From: an uncultured Verrucomicrobiae bacterium | GTDB lineage: Bacteria; Verrucomicrobiota; Verrucomicrobiia; Limisphaerales; Palsa-1400 | Reading direction: 5' to 3' | Assembly: GCA_963764165.1 (NCBI GenBank) | Contig: CAVXRD010000001.1 | Span: 160,001 to 224,000 of the forward strand | DNA length: 64,000 nt | Part shown: positions 12,001-37,602 of the stretch, piece by piece | Layout: every line of letters begins with the position of its first letter | Position numbering within the stretch: position 1 is the first letter of the stretch | Made by a program: the position numbers and the translations under genes | Notes under the pieces: model-generated | Told to the model about the DNA's origin: nothing | The model's input: the letters and a program-made list of their open reading frames with translations, nothing else | The model's database searches: none

Positions 12001-14005
12001 CCGCCCAATCCAAGGGCGGGTAATGATATCCAAGGTCAAGCTGGTTCCCGATGTTTCTCGGCACTACGGGGCCAAGGTTGGTGGTATTCGTGATCCAAGA
12101 TTGATTGAAAACCAACGGCGGATAGGTGGTCAAAGACTCCAAATCGGCAAGCACCGCAGCATTGATGTTTGTCGTACCCGCATTCTGATTTGTGCTGCCG
12201 TTCGCTAGATAATAGCCGCCAGCCCCTACGGTCTGATAAAAGCCCGTGTTAGTCGAATTCACGACGCTGCTGCTGAACGCGATTCCAGAAGTATTGGAAA
12301 CCCCTGTGAAGATGCAATTCGTTGCAAAACAGATATTGCTGGACCCGGTCATGAACGTCGAAATCTGATCCGCCGTCACGTTTACCGCATTGAGGGAAGC
12401 AAAGTTTGAGCCGACGCTATTGATGTAAAAGGCGGTGGTGCATTGGGCAAAAAGCACGTTATAGGCGTCGATAGGAAATCCCGACGCTGATCCGGTATAC
12501 GATAGATAAGGAACTAAAAACGCGCTCGAACAATCAAAAAATTGGCAGTCCCATATCTGGATGGGAGTCGAGCTGAACCACGAAATAACGCCCATAATGG
12601 CGTCGGCGGAGTACGAAAAGCGCAGATATTTGAAGACAAGGGCATTTGTCCCCGGATTATTGAAGCAGATGTATGCTGCCGCGCACGTATTTGGAGTCCC
12701 GGTGCTGCCGCTGATGGTCGATCCGGCAGTGTTGTCATTCATGGAAGTGAAGACCGCCGGGCGATACGCCGCTGTTTGGCATACGATGTTCGAAATCAAG
12801 ATTTCAGCGCCTGAATTATTCGTGTATTTGACTACGGCCCCGCCTTCCACTGTTAGCGTGCCCGAAACATTGACTGTACCCGTCACGAAATAGGTAGAAT
12901 CGCCCTGGAGCGTGAGATTGTTCGTGCTGCTCAGGAGATTATAGTCCACCACCAAGCCGGATTGATTTTTCTTCATTCCGGCGAACAGCATCGAATTTGT
13001 TTCGCTCTCAATCTGTCTAGACCATTTCTTGGGGACGTCCAAGAATGCAAGGCGGCGAACCGAACCACGCCCAGGATCAAGATTCGAGGCGTGAGGGAGA
13101 TTCTGAAGCTGATTGGAAATCGCCTCGAAAGGTATGGATTCAATCAAAAAGGTCCTGCCATTCACCTGAACCCATCTTTTTCTCACGCTTCCGGCGGGCA
13201 CCGGCGCATCCGCCCCATTGAGATAAAGCGCCTCTCCCACTCCCATCTTCATCTCACCGAAGTCCAGCACTTGGTCGTCGACTGTGCTGCCATTGGTGAT
13301 CGAGCTTGCCTGAGGTTCAGCGGAATTGAAAAACTCGGTATAGATCTGCAAAATTGACCCGGCGTCAGACAGGCCGTAACTCGCGGGACCGGCTGGCGCT
13401 TGCCGCAGCACAATGTCCTGGCTCAGTCCGGCCTTCGTGTAGGTGTACCAAATATCCGCATTCAGATTGCTGAAAGCTCCGGAGTATAACACCTGATTTG
13501 TCGCCACAATGGTGCCAGTGCAATTTTTCAGTGTTGCAATCATGGCATTGGATCCAGTCGAAGTATCGTACCAGGCAAGGCCCACCACCGAGCTTGAAAG
13601 CTGCTTTCCATCTGGCGTCGCAACCACAACCGCGCCGCCCGGCGCATTCGCGTTAAGAGCCCAGGTGACTTTATGCCGACCCTGGACCGCTTGCGCTCCG
13701 CCTGGAACGGCGTCAACTTCCTCAACGGAGTCAGCGTATTGCCCATTCGTGAGGTAGCAAAGTCCGGTTGCGATTTCCGTGTAGGATTGAATATTGGTTG
13801 TTACCGTTCCAATGGAATTTGTCTGCAACTGCAAGCGCTGCCAAAGCCGCGAATGAGGAGTCCGCCCGGTGATGGCGTAGTCGCTTGGAGTTGATGTGGC
13901 GGTCGAGTTTGTGGTTTGAACTTGAGCCAGGACGCGGCCTGGGCCAAGGACAACTCCAGTTAAAGCTATTAGGAACAATCGGCGGGCTAAAGGGGGAAAA
14001 TTCAT
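1..14005 (-). CDS. Giant secreted multidomain RHS/YD-repeat protein (>4660 aa, 3' end outside window). Approximate layout: signal peptide, N-terminal region, beta-helix-like region, Ig repeats (~7100-11100), LamG-like (~10000-10400), RCC1-like (~5700-7000), FN3/Ig (~3200-5600), RHS/YD core (<3200)
   Basis: ATG at 14005 gives MNFPPLARRLFLIALTGVVLGPGRVLAQ (signal peptide). The same frame gives FN3-like NGTTYYYTVSAMYAGSETP at ~5430 and YD repeat DVSVGYGYDFLGRLSSVSNY at the window start. Frame spot-checked at three places, not codon by codon. Confidence 0.85.
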   Translation of the reverse strand, partial: MNFPPLARRLFLIALTGVVLGPGRVLAQVQTTNSTATSTPSDYAITGRTPHSRLWQRLQLQTNSIGTVTTNIQSYTEIATGLCYLTNGQYADSVEEVDAVPGGAQAVQGRHKVTWALNANAPGGAVVVATPDGKQLSSSVVGLAWYDTSTGSNAMIATLKNCTGTIVATNQVLYSGAFSNLNADIWYTYTKAGLSQDIVLRQAPAGPASYGLSDAGSILQIYTEFFNSAEPQASSITNGSTVDDQVLDFGEMKMGVGEALYLNGADAPVPAGSVRKRWVQVNGRTFLIESIPFEAISNQLQNLPHASNLDPGRGSVRRLAFLDVPKKWSRQIESETNSMLFAGMKKNQSGLVVDYNLLSSTNNLTLQGDSTYFVTGTVNVSGTLTVEGGAVVKYTNNSGAEILISNIVCQTAAYRPAVFTSMNDNTAGSTISGSTGTPNTCAAAYICFNNPGTNALVFKYLRFSYSADAIMGVISWFSSTPIQIWDCQFFDCSSAFLVPYLSYTGSASGFPIDAYNVLFAQCTTAFYINSVGSNFASLNAVNVTADQISTFMTGSSNICFATNCIFTGVSNTSGIAFSSSVVNSTNTGFYQTVGAGGYYLANGSTNQNAGTTNINAAVLADLESLTTYPPLVFNQSWITNTTNLGPVVPRNIGNQLDLGYHYPPLDWAVNAAISNATVTVLPGTAVAAFGLEYGFWLYANGILNFEGNATSPALFVKYNTVQEQSNTNWCWPTVAWQGNLITPVQTDSSSAAFSFTEFSTLSLDGAVYPEDAAMPVVLQNCQVFNATVNLKFMPAALTNCLFQRAAVTLSDLGSNIPITAENNLFWNGSLTITHRNSGIFSVRDNLLDQTAFAQGSGTQKPMDVCSNNAYVTTNYGVVPPENNAVILSSSPAFQSGAFGPYYYPSIFSPTNLTLINAGSQSASAAELSYFTVMTNNTIDGTNAVSIGFHYPALGTNGLPVGPPYLVAQPASEVVGLGATVIFSAPSAGSTPLSYQWMLNGTNISTATSSSYTVANAQLANSGTYSVCVTNVAGTATSSNASLTVVEVASLAPPTNYPFTSSNATLLTYSIPVSSSNLEIVAKSSPNLPASGLPAVWSLDGQLTNITYISLAQPGIFTVVCQSGTSAITNIISVFEDGDVEQNCSNTNALLLGYWSFNEGNAGGPWVGSPGQQPLASYGLQNPASPWTNALKVDTNISANLSYPYAQANGTLNINCINGAVNFWFAPDWNGGSGPGGAHGTLLQLGDASSTNGWWSLFVDSAGSWLYFATSSNLVATTNIAVSITNWTSNAWHQVTLNYGPDQTSLILDGTVAQIGPGVTNYPTIAQRELYGFSIGSDHTGTNQMRGQLDELTTYNCPIDLTPTIAATPTSICTWATVTLRSTVNGIEPLSLQWQLNGVNLTDNTQISGANSATLTISNFQSTDLGNYALVASNGYQTVTCTTNLLMAMQDAQFVYWGVLSNSSDSLPYGMPDTELAEFPNAWNIINWVGSGTVEGQFNYLEGVPYDLDVGAALIPGDMVAATNSPNVTYQWLANASPIPGATNSYLDPSAYIGKAGTIQLEIIGSCGTNISPPMTVQTGIEAYTYYAYPIIDPSALQWCPGADYIIPHPPTIWALCNYPLQYVEGEFGVSWVESPPLVKWQPSSTNVDEGSPLILTLDVLPRSLDALGLWWNYDPTWWQDAPDLWLYPFLRWVEPFGLPVAPNYFPIIYQWRFNGQPIPNANGYINGWPARTSFDPCAQKCTFANIAGCLIPTANVTNAGTYDCVIWNAVGAEISSPIQVDVNTNLGPTNVWSPVIKTQPVSQTICPGKEVNLWVDVSGCKPISFQWMSNGFAISSATNDSISITSFYPSTNYYSVVVSNTNGTVTSSIATLSVPDCYNQSPFIVVPPTNRTVCEGEFLTLQVVAGGASTFHYQWYLNDAPITNTVSTNWALSIGAVSATSATQTYKVIVTNAYGSDSASAVVSVSALPTNLYVSPGPVTTNLSSTVTLSAAAPGAMGTLGYQWSFNGSSISGATASSYTISNAEYANTGLYSVEVSDSCGGNSSTNVLVQIIAPASTPPVIVSQPETQGTCLGTPVTLSVAVDGSLPLAYQWQLSGTNIAGATQSNYTAACTNVGTNSFTVIVTNSYGAVTSLTAAITISDPTTISIFRQPTNLTMASGGNAVFAVAQNGSCGVTYQWSKAGYGNLVSGVGSVIGGESNVLTLLQVHTNDSGTYSVIIANGYTSVTSSSVVLLVTNAALPPTISSVSNVWCSSIGGGAYGVSFAAVTNKSDARDPNGWPFYFEIETVTNGTLVINGTPFAPPTASKPNCTFNSQSTMAWTPGISHQGIAVPAFFVRVSDGAMLSTNQVPVPIIPLPPTVMLGWGNNKWGSLADGNFASLPIPTPDLPSKAWPWTNPLSVSTPVQSIGLTNLKAFSHDPFDGGAAVNEAGNLLMWGSMTAAYGIFGEGVGTNELLPYFTTPILVEMSNDTGVLAPWTNTVDVSLGYLAIYAIRAVGTNRTIWSWGDLQFGEIGRELDEWEGNNTFQGVGTFKANPITGITNAQGEQISVAEVASDKAMSALALGVDGSVWCWGEMQSLDTDLDDYNVVNAGFFTLFGGPDEVPTRVTDFDTGSPVIQVSASASHYMALRSNGTVWEFGFVPRLALLNGCIFGPPLDCGFTNVPQQAPGLPTNVVSIGAGGLYSLALMSDGTVWQWGLAAQGYDASSGVYTNPVQVYGLSNIIKIDVAWDSCVALDSSGNVWEWGDLEFDQNGFDYNYPDYQSAQPILNPNIEFATNVWIGWQSVFACGSVVTDRPRQLVATPLSTEIQLNWASFPGAAYYNVYRSLTNGGTYGVVGTSTSNSFLDVGLSNGTTYYYTVSAMYAGSETPQSDQASATPYPPPTNVIWSSSYLYGSTNYGIDSQCQDIHLVWYAVDGATVYQVCRSTSLSGPYSIINETTVESNLDISAEGGVNYYYYVVAGNGAGFGPPSITNGPIALDPSTCVPAPIILTNWVPQNGEIELTWQFDATSGLDGFDIETYVCRQDDQNKQAPTASSFPWPVFYSASSLSNISTDTYTYNMTNDVGLIPEYIYWFRVCAVSNGEPGIYSTIVGPISECADLSNIGAPLKVVAVAGNEQVYLEWQAVSNATSYNVGFNTNGSTNFAFVATNLNDTRFWHLGLSNDTTYNYQVTPEVLYEVTNANTNWSYFDYVLGKPAFASATPSNTLGLSTNISTNFTLAATGFDSLVYLHWESLGNPPQYQCFVERKFQTNTDASYQVLSGTGYGLAYYDYDVVNGVTYAYRVTAFDSNFNCFRAVATNVTPSATGILTAIGTPGNGYVSLQWNGIGAASYFIKSGPSAGGPYTALGNTYGTSFICSPVQNGVTNYYVVEAATPFGTTVDSAPIAIVASATLASMPPQNFTAACGSSNILLSWSPVSGAASYRLSWSLPPDYLIYSGPGTAFSFPVPSNTVDNTVFWFDLVDVNQQGQISGVSSASVLYSNIFSAPDANPIVLTVGTYVVPATNGSITNVGPTNLTLTASVQTTNGAGAMVTFYDGPNAIGSAPGPVAQMTWFNVPGGTHAVTAQAVTLPVSPTVALLGDYQNGATFTSATCTMTMLVQPPLTMYQTSATDLQLPAPGLPLSISRSYTSQITNSPGNLGIGWTPSWSVASVQVANGNLANGWIEAGFDYSGVAYAAETTSHLVTLTLPGGASAYFSPTLAPADDPQGSGLSLSFQPCIPNEGTLTCTEAMQGTASLGYSDDLNTWGHNTFFLTGDPDNQTTQFSPDTFVYTTAANTTYQFIQPSGVWLLKQITDANGNSLSYGYDNLNRLTAMQHSNGRVIQFSYTTITNTSPPETWINVSDSVDASAGMHSGAYATNWVVRYLVQGANPTNGLLMEVDKVTNYATGGFERTTYGYDSNNDVNTNRLTQVFDGRGILVTSNLYSAAGDGSLSNQFDAFLHTSIYTYNPTTTVQTVSRMVSGSNQTVTVNYAPSGAVGSVLQPISDLGYTGTTYTYDNNGNVTAQTDSYGNSQKTQYDSLNRPISQSDALGNSTSVQLNVMGQPTLSTDANGNGTTNVYDPSSGNLLQSQDPTGSQSSMTYAPAIMGINGVAAGGLVASSTQQSPGVSYPVTTSYAYYPGSGQPQPNSSGEVASMTQQWPSGSGMPVSTTSYTYDANGNRTSETTTATVNGVPNTPIVTQYQYDAENRLVATIDAIGRISTTIYDHAGHPYITTDVDNRSTTNTYDAAGNLIETAYPDGTVSRMTYDELNHVLYTQDRSVPGTGGATTNAASLNVYDGAGRVVCVERLSGVSLTRQTNTALITRSGADTIYGMTNTSAGTLVSFTRTVYDLAGRVRYSMAANGNVTQYSYDAAGRRTNVLVYTNYTVNLSSINQTIAPTGGTNSTQYFYDPNGNQIAMIDANGHETDYLYDTANRLVLTTYPVLADGTRHQTAIAYDGAGNKIGTTDEAGVKTAYTYDYRGLLTSVILDTASSGQLTYQYTYDERGNQLSQSDANGNLTQYQYDALGRRTMRILPDGSAEITAYADVPLTNGSSIKVQQTSVTDFRGKTIVTTEDVVGRIATKVLPPINLGETTTTETYAYLPGGQLSHVWITNSGSLLREEDYVYDNVGRLIVKTCPEGALQYTYTPNNQVQTMQAYSPGVVAISGGPPDVSVGYGYDFLGRLSSVSNY

Positions 14006-14363
14006 GGAGTGTTGCCTGCCGTGTCTTGCGGGGGAGCGCGGCAATGAAATTGGTTGTTGAATATTGAAATTGCGAGCCTGACAAACCCTTGCTACATCGC
14101 GAGCGATAGCAGACCCAATAACATTTCTCGGGAAGAGAGTTTCTACAGATCAATTGAGAACGTCAATCTATTTTTGAAGATAATTCAAAGAAAATGGATC
14201 CAATTGTCACTTACTGTCGACTTCTATCGATGCGGAGAACAGTAGATAGCCAAATTGTAGCTTATCGTCTGCTATTCGCCGGGCCTCGATTCCTCAAAAA
14301 TAGATTGACGCCCCAATCGCCAGGTGTGATGAAAAAAGGTGAAGCTCTCAATAATATAATATT

Positions 14364-14423
14364 GAGGCGGCGGCGCAGCACCGCCCTACCGCAATTTGGC
14401 AGGGCGGACCTGTGCGTCCGCCC
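14364..14423. repeat. REP-like palindrome pair
   Basis: ggcggcggcgcagcaccgccctacc followed by inverted ggcagggcggacctgtgcgtccgccc; GC-rich hairpins with a GTAG/CTAC-type end. Confidence 0.4.
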
Positions 14424-14754
14424 AAATATTCGTGTGGAATATCACGGTCAATCGCATCTAATCGCCCTTGCGTGCGATTTTTTGCTGGCAGTCAACAAAT
14501 TGTTTTGATAGAAAAGCAAGCCACGCCGGGAAACGACGCAGGAACGGGTACTTCTTTGGCGCGATGAAAGTGATCTGATGCAATTTCGAAACGAGCATCT
14601 TGGGGACGAAAAAGTGAAAGGCCGCAAGCTGTGACGGGGCGGAGCTTTGCCGAATTTTTTCCTTGGCGCCACGGGCCAGGAATTACTTCGTCCGTTTGGC
14701 CCAAGCCAAATCGCGCTCCAGCGTCAACAACGTGCAAGTGTTGTGCAGTTTAAG

Positions 14755-15015
14755 CTAACCTATTCGGATTTGCCGCTCGTATTCTTCATGAGGCCCGATC
14801 CAAAACCATTTTGCCGCGCCACCTTCTACGATGGCAAGGGCTCGATAATTGTCTGTAACGCGCGCAGACCAGAATCCTCCAACTTTTTTAAAATGAAGCG
14901 AAGGATGCTGCGGGTTTTGAAGCCACAACCTGAAGGCCCTTCGCGCCGCACGTTGGATTTCTGGCGGCAGTTGCGCGAATCGGTTACGAAAGCTTTTTGT
15001 GGTCGAGGAACGCAT
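14755..15015 (-). CDS. RelE/ParE-like type II toxin
   Basis: 86 aa MRSSTTKSFRNRFAQLP...NPQHPSLHFKKV..WSARVTDNYRA..WFWIGPHEEYE has the typical RelE/ParE-superfamily pattern; overlaps the upstream small acidic ORF. Confidence 0.8.
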   Translation of the reverse strand: MRSSTTKSFRNRFAQLPPEIQRAARRAFRLWLQNPQHPSLHFKKVGGFWSARVTDNYRALAIVEGGAAKWFWIGPHEEYERQIRIG

Positions 15016-15214
15016 CAAGCGGTGCCTCCGACTCGCCCGGCTCCTCTTTCTGAAGACGCTCGTAAAACTCGCGCAGCCTGCCAGACCCCGCATCGTGCTC
15101 GATTTGGCGATCCCATTCGTCCGCATGGCGCTCGCGCAGATGCCGAACGAGTTCGAAAAACTGCTCGCGCGGCAACCCTTCGATTTGCCTCTCTATTTCC
15201 TGCAACGTCGTCAC
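14984..15214 (-). CDS. Putative antitoxin
   Basis: 76 aa acidic ORF (EIERQIEGLPREQF..DEWDRQIEHDAGSGRL) directly upstream of and overlapping the toxin; GTG start. Confidence 0.7.
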   Translation of the reverse strand: MTTLQEIERQIEGLPREQFFELVRHLRERHADEWDRQIEHDAGSGRLREFYERLQKEEPGESEAPLDAFLDHKKLS

Positions 15215-15255
15215 ACATACAGATTATCTTAACCAAGCTTGGTCATCAAGCCCAA

Positions 15256-15360
15256 GCTTCAACGGAGCCGCGCTCGCTTGAGCGCGGAATGTATTGGTTT
15301 TCACTCGTTTTAACATGCAACGAGCCAGCTTCAACGGGACCGCCTTCGACGGACGATTTG
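15256..15360 (-). ncRNA. Mini-CRISPR / crRNA-like regulatory RNA (degenerate repeat - 36 nt spacer - near-consensus repeat)
   Basis: 15256-15291 is the reverse complement of the array repeat with 3 mismatches, two of them compensatory in the stem. Spacer 15292-15327. 15328-15360 is a degenerate repeat keeping the CCGTTGAAGC 3' end and a short hairpin. Confidence 0.85.
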
Positions 15361-15370
15361 TTGGAGACGA

Positions 15371-15399
15371 TTGACAGTTCAAGAATTATTGCTTAACAT
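15371..15399 (+). promoter_or_regulatory. Sigma70-like promoter of the cas operon
   Basis: TTGACA (15371-15376), 17 bp spacing, TAACAT (15394-15399), ~80 bp upstream of the cas7 ATG. Confidence 0.7.
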
Positions 15400-15406
15400 G
15401 CAACTA

Positions 15407-15435
15407 GACATAACACGAATATCTTAAATTGTCAA
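15407..15435 (-). promoter_or_regulatory. Overlapping opposite-strand promoter for the mini-CRISPR and TA genes
   Basis: Minus strand TTGACA (15435-15430), 17 bp spacing, TG-n-TATGTC (15412-15407); the -10 box is imperfect. Confidence 0.5.
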
Positions 15436-15479
15436 ACTCAGCGGAACAATCGCCGCAGAAACCAGAAACAGAACATATT

Positions 15480-16691
15480 ATGAATGAAGAACCAAAACCA
15501 AAAGTCCTCAGTCTGGACCTCTTAAAATCAGCCGTGAGCGGAAGTGCCGCCGCATTTCGTTCCCGCACCCGTCTACAACCTGCTGGGGGTGAAGGAGACA
15601 AAGTATTTCCGCCAACTTATGCCGGAGCGGTCTACGCCAAGGAGGAGCGGCAAATCAACGGCGCAAAGGTTCCATGCGTGCTGCTTGATTCTGTCCAAGC
15701 GCAAGCGAACCGCTTGGAAGAGGCGCTGCAACGGGCATTGGATGCGGGGACGCTCAAGAACATCCCGGTGTTGAATGTGGATTTTACCGGCCTTGGTCTC
15801 TTGGATGAAATTGGACGAGTGAGCACCCTTGAAGCGCCACATCGAATCGCTGATGCGATCCTTCGTGACAGCCTTTATGAGGGGCAGCCGTTTCGGAAGA
15901 GCACACTCGGGAAGTCATTAGATCAAGCTAGCCTGCAAAACGCTACTCCGCTTTATAAACTCTGCCCGACGGCGTTGATTTTCGGCATATGGGATTCGAC
16001 AGGTCCAAAAGGTGGACTCGGCGCGAAATTTCAGCGGGCTCTCGTATCGGAAATCATCGGCGTGAATGCCGAGATCGGTGTAAAAACAAGTAGCCGAATT
16101 GATCCGCTTGGCATGCGCGCGGCGGCAATGGTGGTCAAGAAGCCAGACGGCAGCTACGAACTTGCGAGCGACAAGGCAAAGGATGCTGTTTCACCGTCAG
16201 GAGTAAACCACGGCAACATTCCACCCGACATCACTAAGCCAGGAGGGGCCGGTGGAGCAACCTTGGACTACGCCGAACAAACGGTTGTCCTGTCCCTGCC
16301 CGCGCTGCGTAAGTTGCGTTTTCCTGTAGATGGTACAACAATCCCCGAGCGGGACGCGGCGGGGCGGACCGTACTTGCAGCATTGGCTCTGACGGCGGCC
16401 ACGCTGGCGGCGGAGAGCGGATTCGATCTCCGTTCCCGATGTCTGCTCTGGCCGACTGAGGCGATGAAGTGGGAATTGCTGGAGACGCCAGGGAAGACTC
16501 CCACCGAGTTCACCGTCACAGCAAAAGAAGCTATCAAGCTTTTGGAGGAAGCGGTTGTGGCGGCGGAAAAGCTCGGCTTGGTATGGCAAAAAGAGCCGGT
16601 GAAGTTAATTCCCTCTCCGAATCTGGTTGCCCTGCTCAAGCGGTCGCAGGACATTTCTGCCAAGTCGCCAGCGGGCGCATCGGCAGAATAA
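15480..16691 (+). CDS. csb1: Type I-G Cas7 (Csb1)
   Basis: LQPAGGEGDKVFPPTY, VLLDSVQAQANRLE, EAPHRIADA, PTALIFGIWDS and HGNIPP motifs of Csb1/Cas7g. Confidence 0.93.
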   Translation: MNEEPKPKVLSLDLLKSAVSGSAAAFRSRTRLQPAGGEGDKVFPPTYAGAVYAKEERQINGAKVPCVLLDSVQAQANRLEEALQRALDAGTLKNIPVLNVDFTGLGLLDEIGRVSTLEAPHRIADAILRDSLYEGQPFRKSTLGKSLDQASLQNATPLYKLCPTALIFGIWDSTGPKGGLGAKFQRALVSEIIGVNAEIGVKTSSRIDPLGMRAAAMVVKKPDGSYELASDKAKDAVSPSGVNHGNIPPDITKPGGAGGATLDYAEQTVVLSLPALRKLRFPVDGTTIPERDAAGRTVLAALALTAATLAAESGFDLRSRCLLWPTEAMKWELLETPGKTPTEFTVTAKEAIKLLEEAVVAAEKLGLVWQKEPVKLIPSPNLVALLKRSQDISAKSPAGASAE

Positions 16692-16706
16692 ACCGAAGGC
16701 ATCACC

Positions 16707-18374
16707 ATGTTTACCCTCGGAATTGATTTCATCACCGGTGTCGCGGTGATGACGGATGCGGCCAGTCGGGAAAAGGCCGAGTGGCCACCGCATCCAGCCC
16801 GCGTTTTCATGGCACTGGTCGCGGCGCACCACGAATCAAAGCCACTGCCAGAAGATGGCCACGATGCAGAAGCGGCATGGGTTCACGAGCGCGCGGCTCT
16901 GGAATGGCTGGAACGCCAAGGCGCTCCGCAAATGAGTTGGCCGGAAGCTTCACCGCGCGACGTGGTAAAAGTCTATGTTCCGGTGAACGACGCAGGAGTT
17001 CCGCAAAATGCCGCCCGAGTGAAAGAATCTGAAATGCGAGCCGCGCTCGGCGTAATGCCCGATCAACGTAGTCGCCAGGAGCGGACATTTCCCGCGGTGC
17101 ATATCAACGGCGAAGGTCCGAATCGACATGTCTATTTTTATTGGCAAAACGCAACGCCTCCGACGGAGATTGTAGCTGCGTTCACCGGACTCACGCGGAA
17201 GGTGACCCGCATCGGACATTCTTCGTCACTCGCGCTAGTTTGGGTTTCCGAGATTGATGACGCACCTTCGCCTTCTTACAAACCAAATGCGAACGCGACT
17301 AAGACACGCCAAGGCGTGCCGCTTCGGATTCCTGTGCCGGGCTTCTTGGCAGAGCTCGACCGATGCTTCAACGCGGGTGAGATCGACGACTTCTTCGACC
17401 TTTCGGCAGCAATTTTAACTAAAACCGGCGCCGCAAAAGATCAAGCGAAAACAGCGTTTGAAGACCGTTTCGCGACGGCTTGGAGTAGGAACGTCAGCGC
17501 TCCGGTGCGACTGCGTCCTTCGCCGGGACGGACGGCGCATTACTCACGCGTGGACGAAGGGAAACCTCTCGTTGTTCTGTCGAGTTTCGATTCCGAACTC
17601 CTGGTGCTGACGAAGCAGGAAGGACCGGTGCTAGGCTTGGAATCCACTGCGGCCCTCACGGCTGCGTTGCGGGGATATTTATTGCAAGCGGGCGAAGACA
17701 AGCCAGAGTGGTTCACGGGCCACAGCGCGCCGGGGTTGCCCTCGACTGGCGGGCACATAGCGCTTCTCCCGCTCGCTTTTGTGGGAGCGGAGCATGCCGA
17801 TGGTCACATCTTGGGATTGGCCGTAGCCTTCCCTCGCGCGATTCCCGCGGCGGATCGGGCGGCTTGTTTGCGCGGGCGGCTGTTTGGCTCATCCGGTGAT
17901 GACCTCGAACCGGAACTTCAGATGGGTAACCTCGGGACGTGGACGCTGCGACGCGAAGAACGCAGTCTGCCGCCGCTGGCTCTGCGGTCGGCGACGTGGT
18001 GCGAGCCGTCTTCCGTCTGGGCGAGTGTCACGCCCGTTGTTCTCGACCGGCACCCGAAGCACGATCAGCAAACCGAGCGAGCGCAGTGGCGCGACGAAGT
18101 CGTCGCGAGCGTCGCCCAAAGTTGCGTGCGGCAGGGTCTGCCGAAACCGGAATTGATTGATGTGGACAAAACCTCGTGGCACCGGGGCGCGCCCCGCTCC
18201 CGACCTGGCCCCAGCGGGATGCCGTGGCTGCCCGGCAAGAAAGGCACCCCCCCCCGCCAGCAGGTGCATGTGCTCATCCAGTTTCCCTGCGAAGTGCAAG
18301 GTCCGCTCCTTCTCGGCGCGGGACGCTTCCGTGGCTACGGCCTCTGCAAACCGCTCGGCTCCTTGTTCAAATGA
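16707..18374 (+). CDS. csb2: Type I-G Cas5/Cas6 fusion (Csb2)
   Basis: EWPPHPARVFMALV, VYVPVND, WASVTPVVL and C-terminal Gly-rich GPLLLGAGRFRGYGLC. Confidence 0.93.
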   Translation: MFTLGIDFITGVAVMTDAASREKAEWPPHPARVFMALVAAHHESKPLPEDGHDAEAAWVHERAALEWLERQGAPQMSWPEASPRDVVKVYVPVNDAGVPQNAARVKESEMRAALGVMPDQRSRQERTFPAVHINGEGPNRHVYFYWQNATPPTEIVAAFTGLTRKVTRIGHSSSLALVWVSEIDDAPSPSYKPNANATKTRQGVPLRIPVPGFLAELDRCFNAGEIDDFFDLSAAILTKTGAAKDQAKTAFEDRFATAWSRNVSAPVRLRPSPGRTAHYSRVDEGKPLVVLSSFDSELLVLTKQEGPVLGLESTAALTAALRGYLLQAGEDKPEWFTGHSAPGLPSTGGHIALLPLAFVGAEHADGHILGLAVAFPRAIPAADRAACLRGRLFGSSGDDLEPELQMGNLGTWTLRREERSLPPLALRSATWCEPSSVWASVTPVVLDRHPKHDQQTERAQWRDEVVASVAQSCVRQGLPKPELIDVDKTSWHRGAPRSRPGPSGMPWLPGKKGTPPRQQVHVLIQFPCEVQGPLLLGAGRFRGYGLCKPLGSLFK

Positions 18375-21300
18375 ATCCGCCATTCCTGACCGCCGACGAT
18401 TTCTCAGCGTTCTTCCGCGAGCTTTGGGGATCGGACTGCGACCCTTTCCCGTGGCAGCGTGAATTTGCCCGCCGCCTCTGTGCAGGGAAAGTGCCCGACT
18501 ACGTGGCTGTTCCAACGGGGAGTGGCAAAACGGCGTGCCTCGACGCCGCCGTCTTCGCCCTCGCGACGCAAGCCGCTTTGCCAATGGCTGAACGCACGCA
18601 AGGCCGGCGCATTTTCTTCATCGTCAATCGCCGAGTCATCGTGGACGAGGCTTACGACCGCGCAGGAAAGCTCTGCAAAAAACTTGGGGACGCCGCTTCC
18701 GAATCCGTGGCTGGGCGCGTGGCCGCAGCGTTGTGCAAGCTTTCCGGGGAAGTCGAGGCGGTCCCGCTAGCGCGTGCGCAGCTTCGTGGGGGAATTTATC
18801 GCGATCGGAGTTGGGCCAACTCGCTCCTCCAGCCGATGATTATTTGCAGCACAGTAGATCAGGCAGGGTCGCGACTGCTCTTTCGCGGCTACGGTGTCAG
18901 TCCCCAAGCCCGGCCAATCCACGCAGCTCTCGTCGCGCAGGACAGCTTGCTGATCATTGATGAAGCGCACATCAGCCGCCCCTTCATCCAGACGTTGGAA
19001 TGGGTGAAGCGTTATCGTCTTCACCAACCAGCGGGGTGTGAGACTGTGCAGCTTCCTTTTCAGCTTATTCAGATGACGGCGACCCCTCCGGCTGACACGC
19101 GTAACGACCAAAAAATCACGCTTACGCCCCAGGATCATGAGCATCCTGTTTTGAAACCGCGCCTGCGGGCTGTGAAGCCTGCGCACCTCATTGTAGAGCC
19201 GAAGGCGAAAGGAAAAGCTCGCGAGGAACAAATGGCGAAGCGGCTTGTGGAGGAAACCAAAAAGATTCTCGCCGAGGATCACCCTCGATCCATCGCCATC
19301 ATGGTCAATCGTGTGGCGACCGCGCGTTCCGTCACGGCAAAATTGGAAAACGAACACAAGGGACGCGTGACGCTTTTGATCGGACGACTGCGCCCACTGG
19401 ATCGGGAAGCAACAACGAAAGACATTCAGGAACGCCTCAAAACTGGAGCCACCGCCAGAACCACCGAGGACGGCCCGAGCATTGTGGTCTCGACGCAATG
19501 TCTGGAGGTCGGAGCCGATTTGGATTTCGACACTCTTGTGACCGAAGCCGCCAGCCTTGATGCGCTCCGCCAGCGCTTCGGGCGTCTTAATCGGGGCGGG
19601 CGCGACATCACGGCCCGCGCGGTAATTGTCCTGCCGGGTGATCAGGATTTGCCCGTGGACAAACTTAACGAGGCCGCACCGTGCGATCCGATCTACGCCA
19701 ACGCCATCCCTCGAACGTGGCGTTGGCTGAGTGGTCTGGCGCAAGATGGCGACGGCGTAGTCGATTTTGGCATCAACGCGATGGGTGCTGCCGTCGATGC
19801 TCTCCGCGCGTCCGGCAGCGAAGAAGCACTCGTGGCGATGTGCTCACCGACCAGCGATGCTCCGGTTCTCCTCCCGGCTTATCTGGACTGTTGGGTGCAA
19901 ACGAATCCCGCACCCGCCGCTGATCCCGACGTCGCGCTATTCCTCCACGGCGCGCAGCGCGAGATGGCAGACGTGCAAGTTTGTTGGCGCGGCGACCTGC
20001 CCGAGGCGGAGAACGAAGACGAGTGGGCGGACATCCTCAGCCTTTGCCCACCGACCACGGCGGAGTGTCTGCCGGTGCCGCTGCCTATCTTCCGGGATTG
20101 GCTAGGCTCGCGTGGCAAGTTCGAGGACTCCTCTGGTGATGTCGCCGAAATCCAGGAACTGCTCGCCAAGAAAAAGGAGGAGGAAGAGCGCGGCATTCCG
20201 GCCCTCGTCTGGCGCGGTCCTGATGACTGCTTCTTCGCACATCGTGCTGCCGGTCTTCGCCCCGGCGACACCATCATTCTCCGCGTTCAGGGTGGCGGAT
20301 GGCAGGCACTCGGACACCTGCCCGGTGTTCCTGCCGATCCGCAGACCACGCCTCAAGGATCACTCCCTCCTGAGGAAGTTTGTCGTGTCGATTTTGCCGA
20401 AAGAGCCACCGCGTCGACCCGGCGACGCGCGATTCTTCGTATCCACCCGGCTCTGTGGCAGACGTCGGAAGCCGGACCCGCAGCGGCAGCCCTGAGGGAC
20501 ATGGCGCTCGATCCCGAAAAAGATTGGCGCATCCCAGAAATCAAAGATCTGCTATCCCGGCTTTTGACCGACGAAAACCCCGGCCGGTCTCTCACCGCCG
20601 AGCAACGGGAAGTGATCCAGCATCTTGCCAAGAAAAGCGTTCGCGTCTACGCAGAGCCATATCCCGGCAACAAAGGGTTCGCCCTGGTTGCTCGCGACCT
20701 ATTGCCGCACGGTGATGCCGACGAAACCAGTGACACCGACGCCGACGCGCTCCTCGAAGCCTCCCAACCCCAGGAACTGTGCGACCACACAAAGGATGTT
20801 CTCGACTGCCTCGAAAGCTCCCTCGCCTTATTGCCACTTGCGGCGTGGCGCGAAGCGCTGATCGCTGCTGCTGCGGTGCATGATTGGGGGAAAGTCGATC
20901 CGCGTTTCCAAGCAATGCTGCGCGGCACCACTCCTTTCGCCGCTATGGCCAGTGGGATCTTCCTCGCGAAGTCCGGTTCCATCGCTTCGTCCGCCGCAGC
21001 CCGCCGCGCGGCGAGGCAGCGGGCCGCACTGCCGGACGGCTTCCGCCACGAGATGTTGTCCCTCCTCATGGCGGAAAACTCCATCGGAACAACCGCGCTG
21101 CCCGCGCCCCCCATGCTCCACGCGCTCACCCTGCATCTCATCGTTACCCACCACGGCTACGCGCGCCCCTTTGCCTCGCTGGTGGACGACGACACTCCGC
21201 CCGAAGTGAGCCTGCCCATGAAAGGCGAGACCATCGCCGTCACCGGAGCCGAGCGCATCGAACATCCCGCTCACGCGCTGGACTCCGGGCTGGCTGAACG

Positions 21301-21415
21301 CTTCTGGCAAATGAACCGACACTACGGCTGGTGGGGCGTCGCCCTCCTCGAAGCAGTTCTCCGTCTCGCCGATCAATCCGCCAGTGCCAACCCGCGAGCA
21401 ATCACGAAACCATGA
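18371..21415 (+). CDS. cas3: Type I-G Cas3 helicase with C-terminal HD nuclease
   Basis: PFPWQ, VPTGSGKT, DEAH, MTAT, STQCLEVGADLD, QRFGRLNR; C-terminal HDWGK..FRHE..HHG..LAD. ATGA overlap with csb2. Confidence 0.95.
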   Translation: MNPPFLTADDFSAFFRELWGSDCDPFPWQREFARRLCAGKVPDYVAVPTGSGKTACLDAAVFALATQAALPMAERTQGRRIFFIVNRRVIVDEAYDRAGKLCKKLGDAASESVAGRVAAALCKLSGEVEAVPLARAQLRGGIYRDRSWANSLLQPMIICSTVDQAGSRLLFRGYGVSPQARPIHAALVAQDSLLIIDEAHISRPFIQTLEWVKRYRLHQPAGCETVQLPFQLIQMTATPPADTRNDQKITLTPQDHEHPVLKPRLRAVKPAHLIVEPKAKGKAREEQMAKRLVEETKKILAEDHPRSIAIMVNRVATARSVTAKLENEHKGRVTLLIGRLRPLDREATTKDIQERLKTGATARTTEDGPSIVVSTQCLEVGADLDFDTLVTEAASLDALRQRFGRLNRGGRDITARAVIVLPGDQDLPVDKLNEAAPCDPIYANAIPRTWRWLSGLAQDGDGVVDFGINAMGAAVDALRASGSEEALVAMCSPTSDAPVLLPAYLDCWVQTNPAPAADPDVALFLHGAQREMADVQVCWRGDLPEAENEDEWADILSLCPPTTAECLPVPLPIFRDWLGSRGKFEDSSGDVAEIQELLAKKKEEEERGIPALVWRGPDDCFFAHRAAGLRPGDTIILRVQGGGWQALGHLPGVPADPQTTPQGSLPPEEVCRVDFAERATASTRRRAILRIHPALWQTSEAGPAAAALRDMALDPEKDWRIPEIKDLLSRLLTDENPGRSLTAEQREVIQHLAKKSVRVYAEPYPGNKGFALVARDLLPHGDADETSDTDADALLEASQPQELCDHTKDVLDCLESSLALLPLAAWREALIAAAAVHDWGKVDPRFQAMLRGTTPFAAMASGIFLAKSGSIASSAAARRAARQRAALPDGFRHEMLSLLMAENSIGTTALPAPPMLHALTLHLIVTHHGYARPFASLVDDDTPPEVSLPMKGETIAVTGAERIEHPAHALDSGLAERFWQMNRHYGWWGVALLEAVLRLADQSASANPRAITKP

Positions 21416-22341
21416 TGACTTCATCCAACGAATTAACCCTCCCGGCATTGCAAGGTTCGAGCTTGCTCGGATTCTTGGCCTCACTGGGTGCTTTCCGCAC
21501 GATCGCCATGCTGCCGGAAGCGAGCGATGTCCGGATGCGATGGGTTGCCGGAGGAGGCTCGTATTGCCCCGTGCTGCGGTTGCCCTCGCCAGCAACGCCC
21601 GAGGTGATCGTCGAAAAACTGCATGCCGCATTGCGCGGTCTCGCTGGCCACTACGTCATCACCGTGGACAAGGACTTGAAGATTCCTCGCGGCGTCTTTC
21701 GCAAACTCGCCGCCAATGCAGCCGAAGACTTTCTAACCCACACCGACCCGATGGCCGCGAGCATGGTCGCGGCATTTGGCTGCGACGCAGTGGGAAACGA
21801 AGACGGCACAATCGAAGACACCGCGTTTCGGACGATGAGTGGCGCAGGCCATCAACACTTCCTGGAATTCATGAACGTGTTGGCGAAGGAAACGACGGTG
21901 GAGCAACTGCGTGAAGCGCTCTTCGGCCCGTGGCGCTACCGAGACTCTAGCCCTACCATGCGGTGGGATACGGAGGATGACCGCCGCTACGCCCTGCGAT
22001 GGGATGAGCCATCGAAAGACCCCGTCCGCACCGTGCGCGGGGCAAACCTCTTAGCCATCGCCGCGCTACCTTTTTTTCCGGTTGTCCCCACTTCCAGCAG
22101 CACGGTGGCAACTACTGGCTTCAACGGTCGAGGAAGCCGTGATACTTTCGTCACATGGCCAGTCTGGACGGGCTGGCTAGCGCTGGATGCTGTTCGCTCG
22201 CTCTTAGGGTTGAAAGAACTTCAGGAGCCGAACGAAACTTCTATAAAGTCTCTTGAAATGTATGGCGTAGTTGCAACCTATCGAAGCCAACGAATTACTC
22301 TTGGAAAATATAGGAATTTTACCCCGGCGACCTCCATGTGA
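21412..22341 (+). CDS. Type I-G short large subunit (Cas8g/Csb3-like)
   Basis: 309 aa, translationally coupled to cas3; N-terminal LLGFLASLG resembles Cas8g N-termini; position fits. Confidence 0.7.
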   Translation: MMTSSNELTLPALQGSSLLGFLASLGAFRTIAMLPEASDVRMRWVAGGGSYCPVLRLPSPATPEVIVEKLHAALRGLAGHYVITVDKDLKIPRGVFRKLAANAAEDFLTHTDPMAASMVAAFGCDAVGNEDGTIEDTAFRTMSGAGHQHFLEFMNVLAKETTVEQLREALFGPWRYRDSSPTMRWDTEDDRRYALRWDEPSKDPVRTVRGANLLAIAALPFFPVVPTSSSTVATTGFNGRGSRDTFVTWPVWTGWLALDAVRSLLGLKELQEPNETSIKSLEMYGVVATYRSQRITLGKYRNFTPATSM

Positions 22342-22435
22342 ACGCTCATTCGGTACTCAACTACAACCGATCAAAAACATTAATGTCCAAGACCCATCAG
22401 CTTAGTCCGAAAATCGTTTAACCAACCCATGATTT

Positions 22436-22525
22436 ATGAAACCCAATCTCGACAAAATTGATGATGCCGTGCTGGCGTTGCTTCGCTTGAGAAGCTTCGC
22501 CGAGGGCAACGTAAGCAAAAGGTAG
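22436..22525 (+). pseudogene. Fragment resembling the N-terminus of a DUF6429-family protein
   Basis: MKPNLDKIDDAVLALLRL then an early stop; family recognised from memory only. Confidence 0.4.
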
Positions 22526-23181
22526 TATGCCGCTCGAACCATTTGATCTCATTTGCCCGGAAATCGCCCGCAATGAACAGGCGGCTTGTGTCGTCGCCGC
22601 TGGGACGTCCGGTGAGCCGTCCGGCGAAAGTCTGCCTGGCGCTGAACCGGACTCCTCGGCGAGGCGTCCCTGCTTCTCGGCGAAAACCAACATGAATTAT
22701 CGGAATCTGCGGGAGGGGGCTCCGTCGCGGCGTTTTCATCCCGGAAACGCCGGGTCGGGGGACCCGGCCTGCATTTCGGAATCGAGCGCCCCGTTGCGCC
22801 TTCGCGTCAAAAACCCCTTTTCGCAATATTTCCCCGAAAATCGCGCCGAAAACACTCTGGTAGGTTTTCTGTCCAGCCTCAGCCGTGGCAAAATGCGTTC
22901 ATGAATGGAACTCACCTCATAAATAGGGATGGGGCGCGGGGCGAGAGATTTGCCCGAACGACAAGGCAGCCCGCAACGCGGACACCGCATATTTGTGCTG
23001 GCTCGAGGAGGGAGAATATCCACCGCGTCTTCGACCGATTGGCAACGCGGTCATCCCGGCAAAGAGCCGCCACCCACAGGGCCGCCACAGACCAGGCCCT
23101 CCGGCGTCGCTGCTCCTCAGTTGCAGGTCCGTTTGCGTTTTCAGCCGGATGAATCGTTGCACCCTATTGCACCTACCGATT

Positions 23182-25458
23182 ATGAACGAGCCTGATGCCT
23201 CCAAAACAGACGCGCTTTCCGGCGAAAACCAGCACGAATCATCCAAATATGCAGGCCGGGTGCCCTCACCCGGCGGGCCGGATGCCCTATCTTGCGAAAA
23301 CCAACGCTCGCTAACACCGCCGGCTTCCACTGATCGCGAGCGATTGGGCTATTCTACGAGTGATGCGGGCGGACGCTTGGGCGAGGTTCCCCTACCTTCA
23401 AAAGATCGCGAACGTTTGCCGGATTCTACAAGTGAAGCAAAGCCGGTAAAAATCGTGCTGCGGGTCGAGGCGGTTGAATCGCGGCTGGCCAAGGCCACGC
23501 CACCGCCGGTTGAACCTTCGCCAATTCACACGCCGGATGCCCTGCCCTCCCCGGCCCGGCCGGAAGCGGAGCCGCAGCCAATTCCGGCGCGGATGCTCAA
23601 TGAATTCGTGTATTGCCAGCGCCTTTTCTATTACGAATTCGTCGAGGGGGTGTTCGTCGAAAGCGCGGATACAGTGCGCGGGGCGGCCATTCACCAGCGC
23701 GTCGATTCCGGCAATGGGGCGCTGCCCAAAGCCAAACGCAAGGCGCAAGCCGACAAGGCGAAGGATGGCGAAGAACCCCCGGCCAATGCCGCTGGCTCCG
23801 CGCCACAGGAAGCGGAGGCGCAGAGCGCGGACTTGTCCGCCGCAGCCTTGGCAAAGGCGGAACCTGAAACCATTCATTCGCGCTCGGTGCAAATGGGTTC
23901 AGAACGGCTGGGAGTTGTCGCGAAGATGGACCTCGTTGAGTCCAAAACAGGGAAGGACGATCTTTTCACCGCCTTGGAAGTCTGCCCCGTTGACTACAAA
24001 GCGGGCGCGCCCAAAGAAGGAGAAGAAGCCAATGAATTGTGGGACACCGACAAGATTCAGCTCGGATTGCAGGCGCTCATTCTGCGAGACAACGGCTATG
24101 TTTGCTCCGAGGGCATCATCTATTACCGCGCCACCAAGCAGCGCGTCCGGCTTCCCATCACGGCGGAACTCGAAAATTGGATTCTTCAACAGATTGCCGA
24201 AGCCCGCCGGGTTGCCGTTGGGCCGATTCCGCAGCCGCTCGTCCATTCGCCGAAATGCGCGCGATGTTCGCTCGCCCCGGTCTGCCTCCCGGACGAAACT
24301 CGGATGCTTTCGGAATCGGCGCTCGTCCCGGGTCTCCTGAGCGGTGAGTTTGTCAAAGGGTCGAACGGCGATGCCGCGAATGCAGAATCGCCGCGCCGCC
24401 TGATGGCCGCCCGCGACGACACCCGGCCCCTGTATCTCAACAGCCAGGGATTTCGCGTCGGGTGCAAGGATGAAGTGTTGCAGGTCAAAGAAAAGGACCG
24501 CCTCGTCGAGGAAGTGAGAATGCGCGACCTGTCCCACGTCGCTCTATTTGGAAACATCCAAATTTCTACGCAAGCCATTCAATCGCTGTGCGAGCAGGAA
24601 ATCCCGGTCACCTACTTTTCCATGGGCGGCTGGTTTTATGGCATCACGCGCGGCCACTCGTTGAAGAATGTCTTCCTGCGGATGGAGCAATTCCGCGTGG
24701 CGAAGGATCCGGCGGCGTGCCTCGCCCTGGCCCGGCAATTTGTGCATGGAAAAATCCGCAATCATCGCACGCTGCTCATGCGCAATCATTTGGAACCTCC
24801 CGAGCCTATCATCCTCAAGCTCAAAAGGGCCGCAGAGGACGCGCTGGTTGCCGAGTCCCTTGAGCAGCTTCTCGGCATCGAGGGAGCGGCCGCGAGCCAG
24901 TATTTCCAACAATTCAGCGGCATGGTCAAGGTTGAGGATGATTTGCCTGGATTCGAAACGACGCCCAAGGAAAAGCAGCTCGCGTTTAGTTTTAACTTCA
25001 GCAATCGCAACCGGCGTCCACCCGCCGACCCTGTCAACGCCATGCTTTCGCTGGCCTACAGCATGTTGAGCAAGGATTGCACGCTCGCGGCGCTCGCGGT
25101 TGGATTCGATCCATATATCGGCTTTTACCATCAGCCGCGATTCGGACGTCCCGCCTTGGGATTGGATTTGATGGAGGAAATGCGGCCGCTGGTGGCGGAA
25201 TCCACGGTGTTGAGCTGCATCAACAACCGAGTCATCACCGAGAAGGATTTTGTGCGCGCGGGCCAAGCCGTGAATCTTTCCGCGCCCGGGCGCAAGCGCT
25301 TTTTCCAGATGTATGAGCAGCGCATGAGTTCCCTGATCACGCATCCGCTGTTCGATTACAAGGTGAGCTACCGCCGGGCGCTCGAATTGCAAGCGCGACT
25401 GCTGGCAAAAGTGCTCACTGGAGAAATCAAGGAATACATTCCATTATTGACGAGGTAA
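23182..25458 (+). CDS. cas1: Cas4-Cas1 fusion (start uncertain)
   Basis: Cas4: ARMLNEFVYCQRLFY, KMDLVE, PVDYK, KCARCSLAPVCLP. Cas1: LLGIEGAAA, RNRRPPADPVNAMLSLAY, GFYHQ, LDLMEE. Confidence 0.93.
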   Translation: MNEPDASKTDALSGENQHESSKYAGRVPSPGGPDALSCENQRSLTPPASTDRERLGYSTSDAGGRLGEVPLPSKDRERLPDSTSEAKPVKIVLRVEAVESRLAKATPPPVEPSPIHTPDALPSPARPEAEPQPIPARMLNEFVYCQRLFYYEFVEGVFVESADTVRGAAIHQRVDSGNGALPKAKRKAQADKAKDGEEPPANAAGSAPQEAEAQSADLSAAALAKAEPETIHSRSVQMGSERLGVVAKMDLVESKTGKDDLFTALEVCPVDYKAGAPKEGEEANELWDTDKIQLGLQALILRDNGYVCSEGIIYYRATKQRVRLPITAELENWILQQIAEARRVAVGPIPQPLVHSPKCARCSLAPVCLPDETRMLSESALVPGLLSGEFVKGSNGDAANAESPRRLMAARDDTRPLYLNSQGFRVGCKDEVLQVKEKDRLVEEVRMRDLSHVALFGNIQISTQAIQSLCEQEIPVTYFSMGGWFYGITRGHSLKNVFLRMEQFRVAKDPAACLALARQFVHGKIRNHRTLLMRNHLEPPEPIILKLKRAAEDALVAESLEQLLGIEGAAASQYFQQFSGMVKVEDDLPGFETTPKEKQLAFSFNFSNRNRRPPADPVNAMLSLAYSMLSKDCTLAALAVGFDPYIGFYHQPRFGRPALGLDLMEEMRPLVAESTVLSCINNRVITEKDFVRAGQAVNLSAPGRKRFFQMYEQRMSSLITHPLFDYKVSYRRALELQARLLAKVLTGEIKEYIPLLTR

Positions 25459-25461
25459 TCC

Positions 25462-25752
25462 ATGCGCACGACCTACCTGGTTTGCTACGATGTCGCCGAT
25501 GCCAAACGACTGCGGCACGCGTTCAAGACATGCCGCAACTTCGGCGACCACTTGCAATTCTCGGTGTTCGAGTGCGATCTCAATCCGTCGGAGAAGATTG
25601 AAATGGAAACGCAACTCGCGCAAATCATCAATCATGATGAAGACCAGGTGCTCTTCATCTCGCTTGGGCCGTCTGAAGGCCGGGGAGACCGCGTGATTAC
25701 GGCGTTAGGCTTGCCCTACACGAAATTGGACGCGCCGTGTTATGTGGTCTGA
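25462..25752 (+). CDS. cas2: Cas2
   Basis: YLVCYDVADAKRL, LQFSVFEC; 96 aa. Confidence 0.95.
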   Translation: MRTTYLVCYDVADAKRLRHAFKTCRNFGDHLQFSVFECDLNPSEKIEMETQLAQIINHDEDQVLFISLGPSEGRGDRVITALGLPYTKLDAPCYVV

Positions 25753-25956
25753 CGTTCTGGGCTCTTTGACATTTTGACCTCGCGAGCGGCAGGGTGGTGC
25801 GGCAGCCCCCGTTGCCGCTCGCATGCCACAACCATTTGAATACCAAGCTCTACCGATGACACCATCGACCAGCAGAACAGAAAAGGAACGAAAGGGATAC
25901 AGGCAATCGCAAGAATCCTCTTGCGGGCCTGCCCCGGAACGAGTTACGCTTCGGGA
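25753..25956 (+). promoter_or_regulatory. CRISPR leader
   Basis: Non-coding segment between cas2 and the first repeat. Confidence 0.7.
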
Positions 25957-34672: not shown

Positions 34673-34726
34673 GCACGCGGCACAAAGTCCCGCCCATGCG
34701 TGATGGGGCACTTGCCCCCGGTGATG

Positions 34727-34883
34727 GCTTGAAGATCCACTATGTCCACGCCCGGTCAACCACCTGGCGCTCGGATGCCAGAAGCCTTGCCGACACGGCT
34801 AAAAAGGAAAATTGCCACGCCCTGCGTGGCCCTGCGCATCCCCCTTCCCAAACAACTAGCCCAGCGGCAATGAGCGATTCAAA
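34727..34883 (+). repeat. Conserved ~160 bp non-coding element, copy 1
   Basis: gcttgaaga..cactatgt..cccggtcaaccac..cggctaaaaaggaaaa..gccacgccctgcgtggc..cccaaacaactagcccagcggcaatgagcgattcaaa; also at 42288 and 50235. Confidence 0.9.
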
Positions 34884-34959
34884 CTAGCGCGAAGCGCCCA
34901 GCTAAAACGCGAGCCGTTCGGTGCGCCTCATGTGCAAAAGACGTGGCAATGACCGTTTT

Positions 34960-35292: not shown

Positions 35293-35299
35293 GCGAGCC

Positions 35300-36283: not shown

Positions 36284-36329
36284 GTCGGCGGCGATTTTAC
36301 GGGGAGAACGGCCCGGAGGCGAGGCTGAT

Positions 36330-37526: not shown

Positions 37527-37602
37527 CGTTTTTTCTTTAGTTGTCCTCTCTTACGGCTGTTAAACCACTAACAACTAAAGAGATAAGAGCGTCACGGACG
37601 GC

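Follow-up and report, generated by a model that had tools for sequence, protein, structure and literature searches.

Within the 64-kb stretch of DNA analysed here, referred to below as the window, a complete type I-G CRISPR-Cas locus is encoded on the plus strand (Table 1), and a second, much smaller CRISPR-like unit of two repeats and one spacer is found on the minus strand, divergent from cas7g, 117 nt ahead of that gene and 10.6 kb from the main array. The question that this locus raises is what function, if any, such a separate mini-array may have. According to the initial annotation, its spacer targets the promoter of the cas genes, by which the system would regulate itself. Results of our analysis support this autoregulatory reading as far as sequences can tell, both by the anatomy of the unit, which is that of the Cas-regulating CreR elements, and by the recurrence of the same design in eight further distinct cas7g loci. 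We consider it highly probable that the element is a CreR-type, Cas-regulating mini-CRISPR of type I-G, by which the effector operon represses itself. To our knowledge, type I-G is the least studied of the type I subtypes.

The CRISPR-Cas locus belongs to subtype I-G, in agreement with the initial annotation. It encodes the complete signature set of this subtype, namely csb1/cas7g, csb2 (a Cas5-Cas6 fusion), cas3g, cas8g, and a cas4-cas1 fusion, the products of which matched the NCBIfam models TIGR02570, TIGR02165, TIGR02621, and NF049935, as well as models of Pfam and PADLOC. The genes of the effector operon follow each other in the order cas7g-csb2-cas3g-cas8g (15480-22341, plus strand), and the open reading frames (ORFs) of csb2 and cas3g, as well as those of cas3g and cas8g, overlap by 4 nt. 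No family match was obtained for the roughly 1.25 kb that separate cas8g from the Cas4 domain (22342-23590), nor for some 200 residues by which the cas4g/cas1g ORF is extended at its N terminus. A search of the region 13000-26600 against Rfam, with E values up to 1 allowed, gave zero matches.

Table 1. Coordinates of the CRISPR-Cas features of the window
Feature	Position	Strand	Basis or remark
cas7g/csb1	15480-16691	+	ORF, NCBIfam, Pfam
csb2	16707-18374	+	ORF, NCBIfam, Pfam
cas3g	18371-21415	+	ORF, NCBIfam, Pfam; start inferred from ORF translation
cas8g	21412-22341	+	PADLOC Cas8g, E=3.3e-90; start inferred from ORF translation
cas4g/cas1g	inside ORF 22993-25458	+	NCBIfam, Pfam
cas2	25462-25752	+	NCBIfam, Pfam
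Main CRISPR array	25950-32580	+	3' of cas4g/cas1g and cas2
psiR2, near-intact repeat	15256-15291	-	33/36 identical to array repeat
psiS, 36-nt pseudo-spacer	15292-15327	-	positions 1-18 match target
psiR1, degenerate repeat	15328-15363	-	21/36 identical to array repeat
Predicted promoter of effector operon	15371-15399	+	sigma-70-like consensus scan, 10/12
Target, protospacer-like	15393-15410	-	16/18 identical to psiS positions 1-18
TTA, PAM-like flank 5' of target	15411-15413	-	read from sequence
Candidate mini-array promoter	15407-15435	-	read by eye; below scan criteria

The main array comprises 92 repeats of 36 nt, all identical to each other, and 91 spacers of 35-38 nt. In the repeat, an 8-bp hairpin is followed by 4 nt and then by GTTGAAGC, the 8-nt 5' handle. 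Csb2 of type I-G was described to cut 4 nt 3' of the hairpin base, which leaves an 8-nt 5' handle (PMC9638904), and the layout of the repeat therefore fits this mode of cleavage.

The mini-array is composed of three units of 36 nt each (15363-15256), arranged as psiR1-psiS-psiR2, and its decay is asymmetric, with the handle kept in psiR1 and the hairpin kept in psiR2. The final 10 nt of psiR1 are identical to those of the array repeat and include the intact 8-nt handle (15335-15328), while a short hairpin, CCGTC-GAA-GGCGG, is retained 4 nt ahead of it. The pseudo-spacer psiS starts with TGGCTCGTTGCATGTTAA at 15327, directly after this handle. In psiR2, which also has an intact handle, differences from the array repeat concern positions 7, 14, and 22. 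The 8-bp hairpin of psiR2 is present in the predicted fold, in the MFE and centroid structures alike, and psiR2 is the sole copy of the 3' part of the repeat outside the array in the 7.0-Mb genome. The stem of this repeat had been proposed to carry compensatory changes. Such a change exists, as positions 7 and 22 pair with each other in the stem and the pair is changed from A-U to G-C, but it is one pair and not several; the change at position 14 falls in the loop.

We ruled out the possibility that the unit is an ordinary adaptive array, as psiR1 shares 21 of 36 positions with a repeat of which 92 out of 92 array copies are identical, and psiS matches its own locus. A different question is whether the unit is the fossil of an old or inverted array, with a match to its surroundings that arose by local duplication or by an old self-acquisition and serves no function. 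The heavy decay of psiR1 would agree with such an origin. However, this decay is patterned, sparing just the psiR1 handle and the psiR2 hairpin next to an array of 92 identical repeats, and the change in the psiR2 stem is compensatory. Further evidence that bears on this explanation comes from the guide-target match and from related loci.

The initial annotation reported that the minus-strand spacer matches a site next to cas7g at 16 of 18 positions and that TTA precedes this site, and re-reading of the sequence confirmed it. The target reads TGTCTAGTTGCATGTTAA on the minus strand (15410-15393) and differs from psiS at positions 3 and 6. Beyond position 18, guide and target agree at 2 of the 18 following positions, so that pairing stops after position 18, as had been claimed. 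When up to three mismatches were allowed, the 18-mer of psiS was found in the window in the spacer itself and in the target and nowhere else, the chance level being 0.03 on average over 100 shuffles. In the 7.0-Mb genome, it was found at four places: the spacer, the target (two mismatches), and two sites with three mismatches, the flanks of which (AGG and ATT) are not of the TTN type. The best match of this 18-mer in the genome, beside itself, is the TTA-flanked target.

Position 3 of the match is a mismatch in the seed, with G in the guide opposite A in the target strand. A mismatch in the seed of type I systems is expected to weaken binding. Repression by this guide may be weak for that reason, or the mismatch may be a sign of decay, which would speak for a fossil array. 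The pseudo-spacer is also able to fold on itself, since its positions 3-9 can pair with positions 19-25 in a predicted internal hairpin; both bases that differ from the target, 3 and 6, are paired within it.

The 12-mer that is common to guide and target, GTTGCATGTTAA, occurs twice, 83 nt apart, in what is a regulatory region, and these copies might be taken for binding sites of a protein regulator, in which case the placement of the handle and of TTA beside them would be coincidental. The 12-mer is not palindromic, though, and it is present at these two places only in the 7.0-Mb genome, in which its 10-mers are as frequent as expected. On these motif counts, the protein operator reading was rejected. 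It would also leave unexplained why unrelated guides of other loci, described below, obey the same rules as to handle, TTN flank, and sixth positions, and we give it practically no credence.

As regards the PAM, the initial annotation assumed the TTN type, which is stated for type I-G, with reference to earlier work, in PMC9638904. Independent support is provided by the main array. A blast comparison of its 91 spacers with the genome and the related loci gave one real match, that of spacer 32 (28237-28273), the others being chance matches of 14-24 nt. Spacer 32 matches its own genome at 36 of 37 positions on another contig (G000:C4:327232-327268, corresponding to L053 6233-6269), the mismatch being at position 4, in the seed, and the 5' flank of this protospacer is TTT. 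The site is surrounded by genes encoding Mu Gam, a D12 methyltransferase, a DUF5131 protein, and a large terminase, which indicates a Mu-like prophage. The targets of pseudo-spacers are TTN-flanked as well, in nine of nine loci (Table 2). Type I-G PAMs are not uniform, though, as that of the Bifidobacterium lactis system was reported to be TAN (PMC9335239).

The target had been described as covering the -10 box of the cas promoter. In our consensus scan, the promoter predicted ahead of cas7g consists of TTGACA (15371-15376), a spacing of 17 nt, and TAACAT (15394-15399), and the latter hexamer lies within the target, as claimed. This promoter is the only sigma-70-like site in the region 14900-15600, for which shuffled sequences gave 0.3 sites. 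The target thus covers the predicted -10 box together with the expected start site, both being known from consensus only. On the opposite strand, a candidate promoter for the mini-array can be read by eye: TTGACA (15435-15430), 17 nt ending with TGT, and TATGTC (15412-15407). It interleaves with the plus-strand promoter and overlaps both the PAM-like flank and the target. It failed the criteria of the scan and is a putative promoter, read from the sequence.

Evidence on the recurrence of this design comes from the comparison with 48 cas7g loci, mostly of Verrucomicrobiota MAGs. A scan for pairs of similar 18-mers, in which all positions were weighted equally, was run on the 600 nt upstream of cas7g in the window and in 45 of these loci (L016, L025, and L047 have no upstream DNA and were excluded). 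It revealed pairs with one member directly after a handle in the window, L013, L018, L027, and L005/L021; the last two have the same sequence and were therefore counted once. A handle-anchored scan added four loci, L003, L022, L038, and L039. The guides of the resulting nine loci are mutually unrelated in sequence.

Table 2. Flank of the target and mismatched guide positions in nine cas7g loci
Locus	5' flank of target	Mismatches (positions 1-18)
Window	TTA	3, 6
L003	TTG	6, 9, 12, 13, 18
L013	TTT	5, 15
L018	TTA	8, 12, 18
L021 (=L005)	TTA	6, 12, 18 only
L022	TTC	6, 9, 10, 12, 18
L027	TTA	6, 8, 12
L038	TTT	none
L039	TTA	3, 4, 6, 12

The significance of these matches was assessed in a strict scan of the 339 positions that follow TT[GA]AAGN in the window and 47 loci, a match being defined as agreement at no fewer than 13 of 15 non-sixth positions with a site within 400 nt. 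Ten of the 339 positions gave a match, and nine of these matches were flanked by TT. The cross-locus null, comprising 13,560 tests, predicts 1.6 matches and 0.075 TT-flanked matches per 339 positions. The single match that lacks TT (L042, flank GAT) is consistent with noise, and a match in L029 (flank TTC, offset +377), which came from the first control only, was treated as noise, too. In that first control, in which every position of the loci was counted, true arrays and palindromes dominated the outcome (33,159 non-handle matches), and the cross-locus null was used in its place. No match of at least 13/15 was obtained for a possible second guide after the psiR2 handle of the window, which is among the 339 handle-like positions scanned. 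Because the design recurs with unrelated guides and far above the cross-locus null, these results support the CreR-type reading.

The nine loci also have in common the extent of pairing, which ends at positions 17-23 in every one of them. Their mismatches favour positions 6, 12, and 18. These positions account for 8 of 13 mismatches in the five loci that the unweighted scan had revealed (binomial p=3.5e-4) and for 16 of 27 over all nine loci, a set that was selected with those positions ignored. In all eight relatives, the psiR1 handle and the psiR2 hairpin are kept, and the 3' end of psiR2 is often decayed. The weakest case is that of L039, a Bifidobacteriaceae MAG, in which positions 3 and 4 of the seed are mismatched and the TTA flank is at variance with TAN, the PAM reported for the I-G system of B. 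lactis (PMC9335239).

These regularities bear directly on the question of array debris. For the mini-arrays of L008 and L020, no target was detected in the whole loci, even when weaker TTN-flanked ones were searched for, and such units, like the mismatch in the seed, are what might be expected of remnants. The appearance of one design, with TTN flanks but unlike sequences, in eight further distinct loci, the periodicity of mismatches at every sixth position, and pairing that always ends near half of the guide length are difficult to reconcile with chance remnants, and we find it very unlikely that the mini-array is a fossil without function. A DNA search with the region 15200-15500 in 60 relatives returned matches to CRISPR repeats only, and the intergenic region is kept in none of them. 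The places with single matches that were examined (L055 and L064-L066) are ordinary short arrays or a contig-end repeat. In L003, L018, and L027, a third, partial repeat with an intact handle is located 24-43 nt after psiR2; no target was found in the case of the sequences that follow it in these three loci.

Does the guide act on the cas operon or, rather, on the unit from which it is itself transcribed? The genes next to the mini-array make the latter worth considering. A small ORF without a family match (14984-15214, minus strand) begins 41 nt after psiR2, and an ORF encoding a ParE-like toxin (about 14755-15015, minus strand; Pfam PF24732) overlaps it, so that the pair (14755-15214) is co-oriented with the mini-array. 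An inverted repeat with the arms AAGCTTGG and CCAAGCTT, 9 nt apart, is present between psiR2 and the small ORF (15235-15259), and 4 nt of its right arm are shared with the psiR2 handle; this repeat is a possible operator of the toxin-antitoxin (TA) pair. Small co-oriented genes are found 3' of the mini-array in each of the seven divergent loci inspected. In L018, the mini-array is followed by a gene encoding a DUF433 protein, and the corresponding gene of L027 was read as DUF433 from its sequence only. In L003, a 163-aa CRISPR-associated Ser/Thr kinase is encoded just 3' of the mini-array (2755-3246, minus strand), matching in its full length the PADLOC model PDLC01137 (E=2.8e-49), which is described as a kinase next to the I-C systems of Rhodopirellula. 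Judging by eye, the same kinase is encoded in L013, L021, and L022.

Hence, the guide may be thought to control mainly the minus-strand unit, that is, its own transcript and the cargo genes, much as CreTA modules or mini-arrays with regulated cargo do, with the control of cas genes being secondary or absent. In eight of nine loci, the target precedes the mini-array on the strand of the latter, and in L038 and L039 the mini-array sits between the target and cas7g. The candidate minus-strand promoter overlapping the flank and target in the window, the position of the small ORF and the toxin gene behind psiR2, the co-oriented genes of the relatives, and the enrichment of TA genes beside mini-arrays described by Shmakov et al. 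(PMC10120712) are in line with such control. On the other hand, no minus-strand promoter reached the threshold of the scan, and the cargo varies by locus, from a ParE-like toxin to a DUF433 protein and a CRISPR-associated Ser/Thr kinase. Moreover, a protein TA pair has its own antitoxin and, in the palindrome at 15235-15259, possibly its own operator, and the target lies squarely on the strong predicted plus-strand promoter of cas7g. As the principal role of the guide, control of the minus-strand unit seems to us improbable, but in addition to the control of the cas genes it may well hold. A promoter beside the target was predicted by the consensus scan in two of the nine loci, the window and L018.

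A combination of both roles is conceivable if the interleaved, back-to-back promoters of the window are real. One complex could then shut off the cas operon, the guide transcript, and the ParE-type TA pair at the same time, without cutting. We regard this arrangement as rather unlikely. If it did exist, the double-promoter site would constitute a self-limiting loop and a protein toxin-antitoxin module would be placed under the supervision of Cascade, but it would need an effector that contains Cas3 and does not cut at an R-loop of 18 bp.

CreR-type control of the effector operon thus remains our preferred reading, and elements of this kind are known from other systems. CreR mini-CRISPRs were tested in types I-B, I-E, and V-A, and creA-like elements were found by hand for types I-D, I-C, I-E, I-F, and I-U (Liu et al., 10.1101/2023.03.10.532045). 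Like them, the unit described here has the psiR1-psiS-psiR2 structure, with the 5' handle kept in psiR1 and the 3' hairpin in psiR2, and the PAM-proximal part of the guide corresponds to a PAM-flanked site that coincides with the effector promoter or adjoins it; here this promoter is a predicted one. In the I-E CreR of Salmonella, 15 consecutive nucleotides are matched after AAG (10.1101/2023.03.10.532045), in contrast to 16 of 18 with a seed mismatch in the present case. Other differences are that this system is of type I-G (formerly I-U), that the unit is divergent from the operon, and that Cas3 belongs to the I-G effector.

The targets of regulatory mini-arrays of class 1 systems were described by Shmakov et al. 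(PMC10120712) for types I-E, I-F1, I-D, and I-B; type I-G has a row in Table 1 of that study, with 235 loci, of which a fraction of 0.46 had a repeat-like sequence and 0.04 a mini-array. The mini-arrays of that study share with the present one the two repeats, a partial match of at least 10 nt, a canonical PAM, and mismatches at sixth positions, and they, too, are adjoined by TA and other cargo genes. Our search of the literature on CreR, cas autorepression, and mini-arrays in connection with type I-G found no study of an I-G regulatory guide, although the supplements of PMC10120712 may list I-G cases; the principle as such is already published, but no tested example was found for type I-G.

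In CreTA modules, an RNA toxin is kept repressed by Cascade under the guidance of CreA (PMC10120712, 10.1101/2024.10.29.618823). The present unit resembles them in having a degenerate mini-CRISPR guide, a short match, and an adjacent gene of the toxin type, and the repression in CreTA is Cascade-dependent. Unlike in CreTA, however, no small RNA toxin is evident; the neighbouring protein TA pair, with its ParE-like toxin, probably has an operator of its own, and the target is on the predicted cas promoter. As to a promoter of the toxin genes, the target overlaps only the weak minus-strand candidate, which is below the scan criteria. A more distant parallel is the long-form tracrRNA of type II-A, which autorepresses cas9 (Workman et al. 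2021, via PMC10120712). There, too, a natural and partly complementary guide makes the effector repress the promoter from which it is itself expressed, but the effector is a single protein of class 2, and the RNA and PAM logic are different.

What we observed is the anatomy of the unit, its match to a site that has a PAM-like flank and overlaps a predicted promoter, and the recurrence of this design in relatives. From these observations we infer a course of events that would involve transcription, processing, binding, and repression in the absence of cleavage. The psiR1-psiS-psiR2 unit would be transcribed from the minus strand and cut by Csb2 4 nt 3' of each hairpin, giving a crRNA-like RNA in which GUUGAAGC, as the handle, precedes the 36-nt psiS and the hairpin of psiR2. 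After being loaded with this RNA, the I-G Cascade (Cas7g, Csb2, and Cas8g, with Cas3g) would recognise TTA (15413-15411) and pair with 15410-15393 along no more than the 18 initial nucleotides of psiS. Sitting on the -10 box and start site, the complex would block RNA polymerase and thereby lower the transcription of cas7g-csb2-cas3g-cas8g, while the half-length R-loop would not license Cas3 to cut. Such a loop could let the level of Cas proteins rise when other crRNAs titrate Cascade or when Cascade is blocked.

The last step of binding deserves attention. Cas3 was reported to be a stable part of the I-G Cascade and to be needed for efficient R-loop formation (PMC9638904), and in a cell-free assay of the B. 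lactis I-G Cascade, GFP was not repressed when Cas3 was missing (PMC9335239). As Cas3 is both stably present and required for the R-loop, it is an assumption of the proposed mechanism that the complex binds at an 18-bp match and does not nick. If the guide is functional, it raises the question of how a natural, half-length I-G guide permits binding without a nick in the cell's own chromosome. It would also extend to type I-G the recently described principle of effectors that use a decayed guide to repress the genes encoding them, and CRISPR interference with I-G systems might be modelled on this natural mini-array. The genome carries a spacer against a resident Mu-like prophage, and throttling of the system may therefore matter to the cell.

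Certain minor features of these loci were also recorded. In L038, a gene read from its sequence as encoding a WYL-domain-like regulator (2199-3206) ends 16 nt before the pseudo-spacer target, and csb2, the WYL-like gene, the target, the mini-array, and cas7g are all on one strand. In the window, the region 34700-50400 contains large direct repeats in units of about 7.6 kb, present in two or three copies with 87-96% identity, and two distant stretches, 250-2600 and 53200-55140, share repeated motifs of 33-42 nt.
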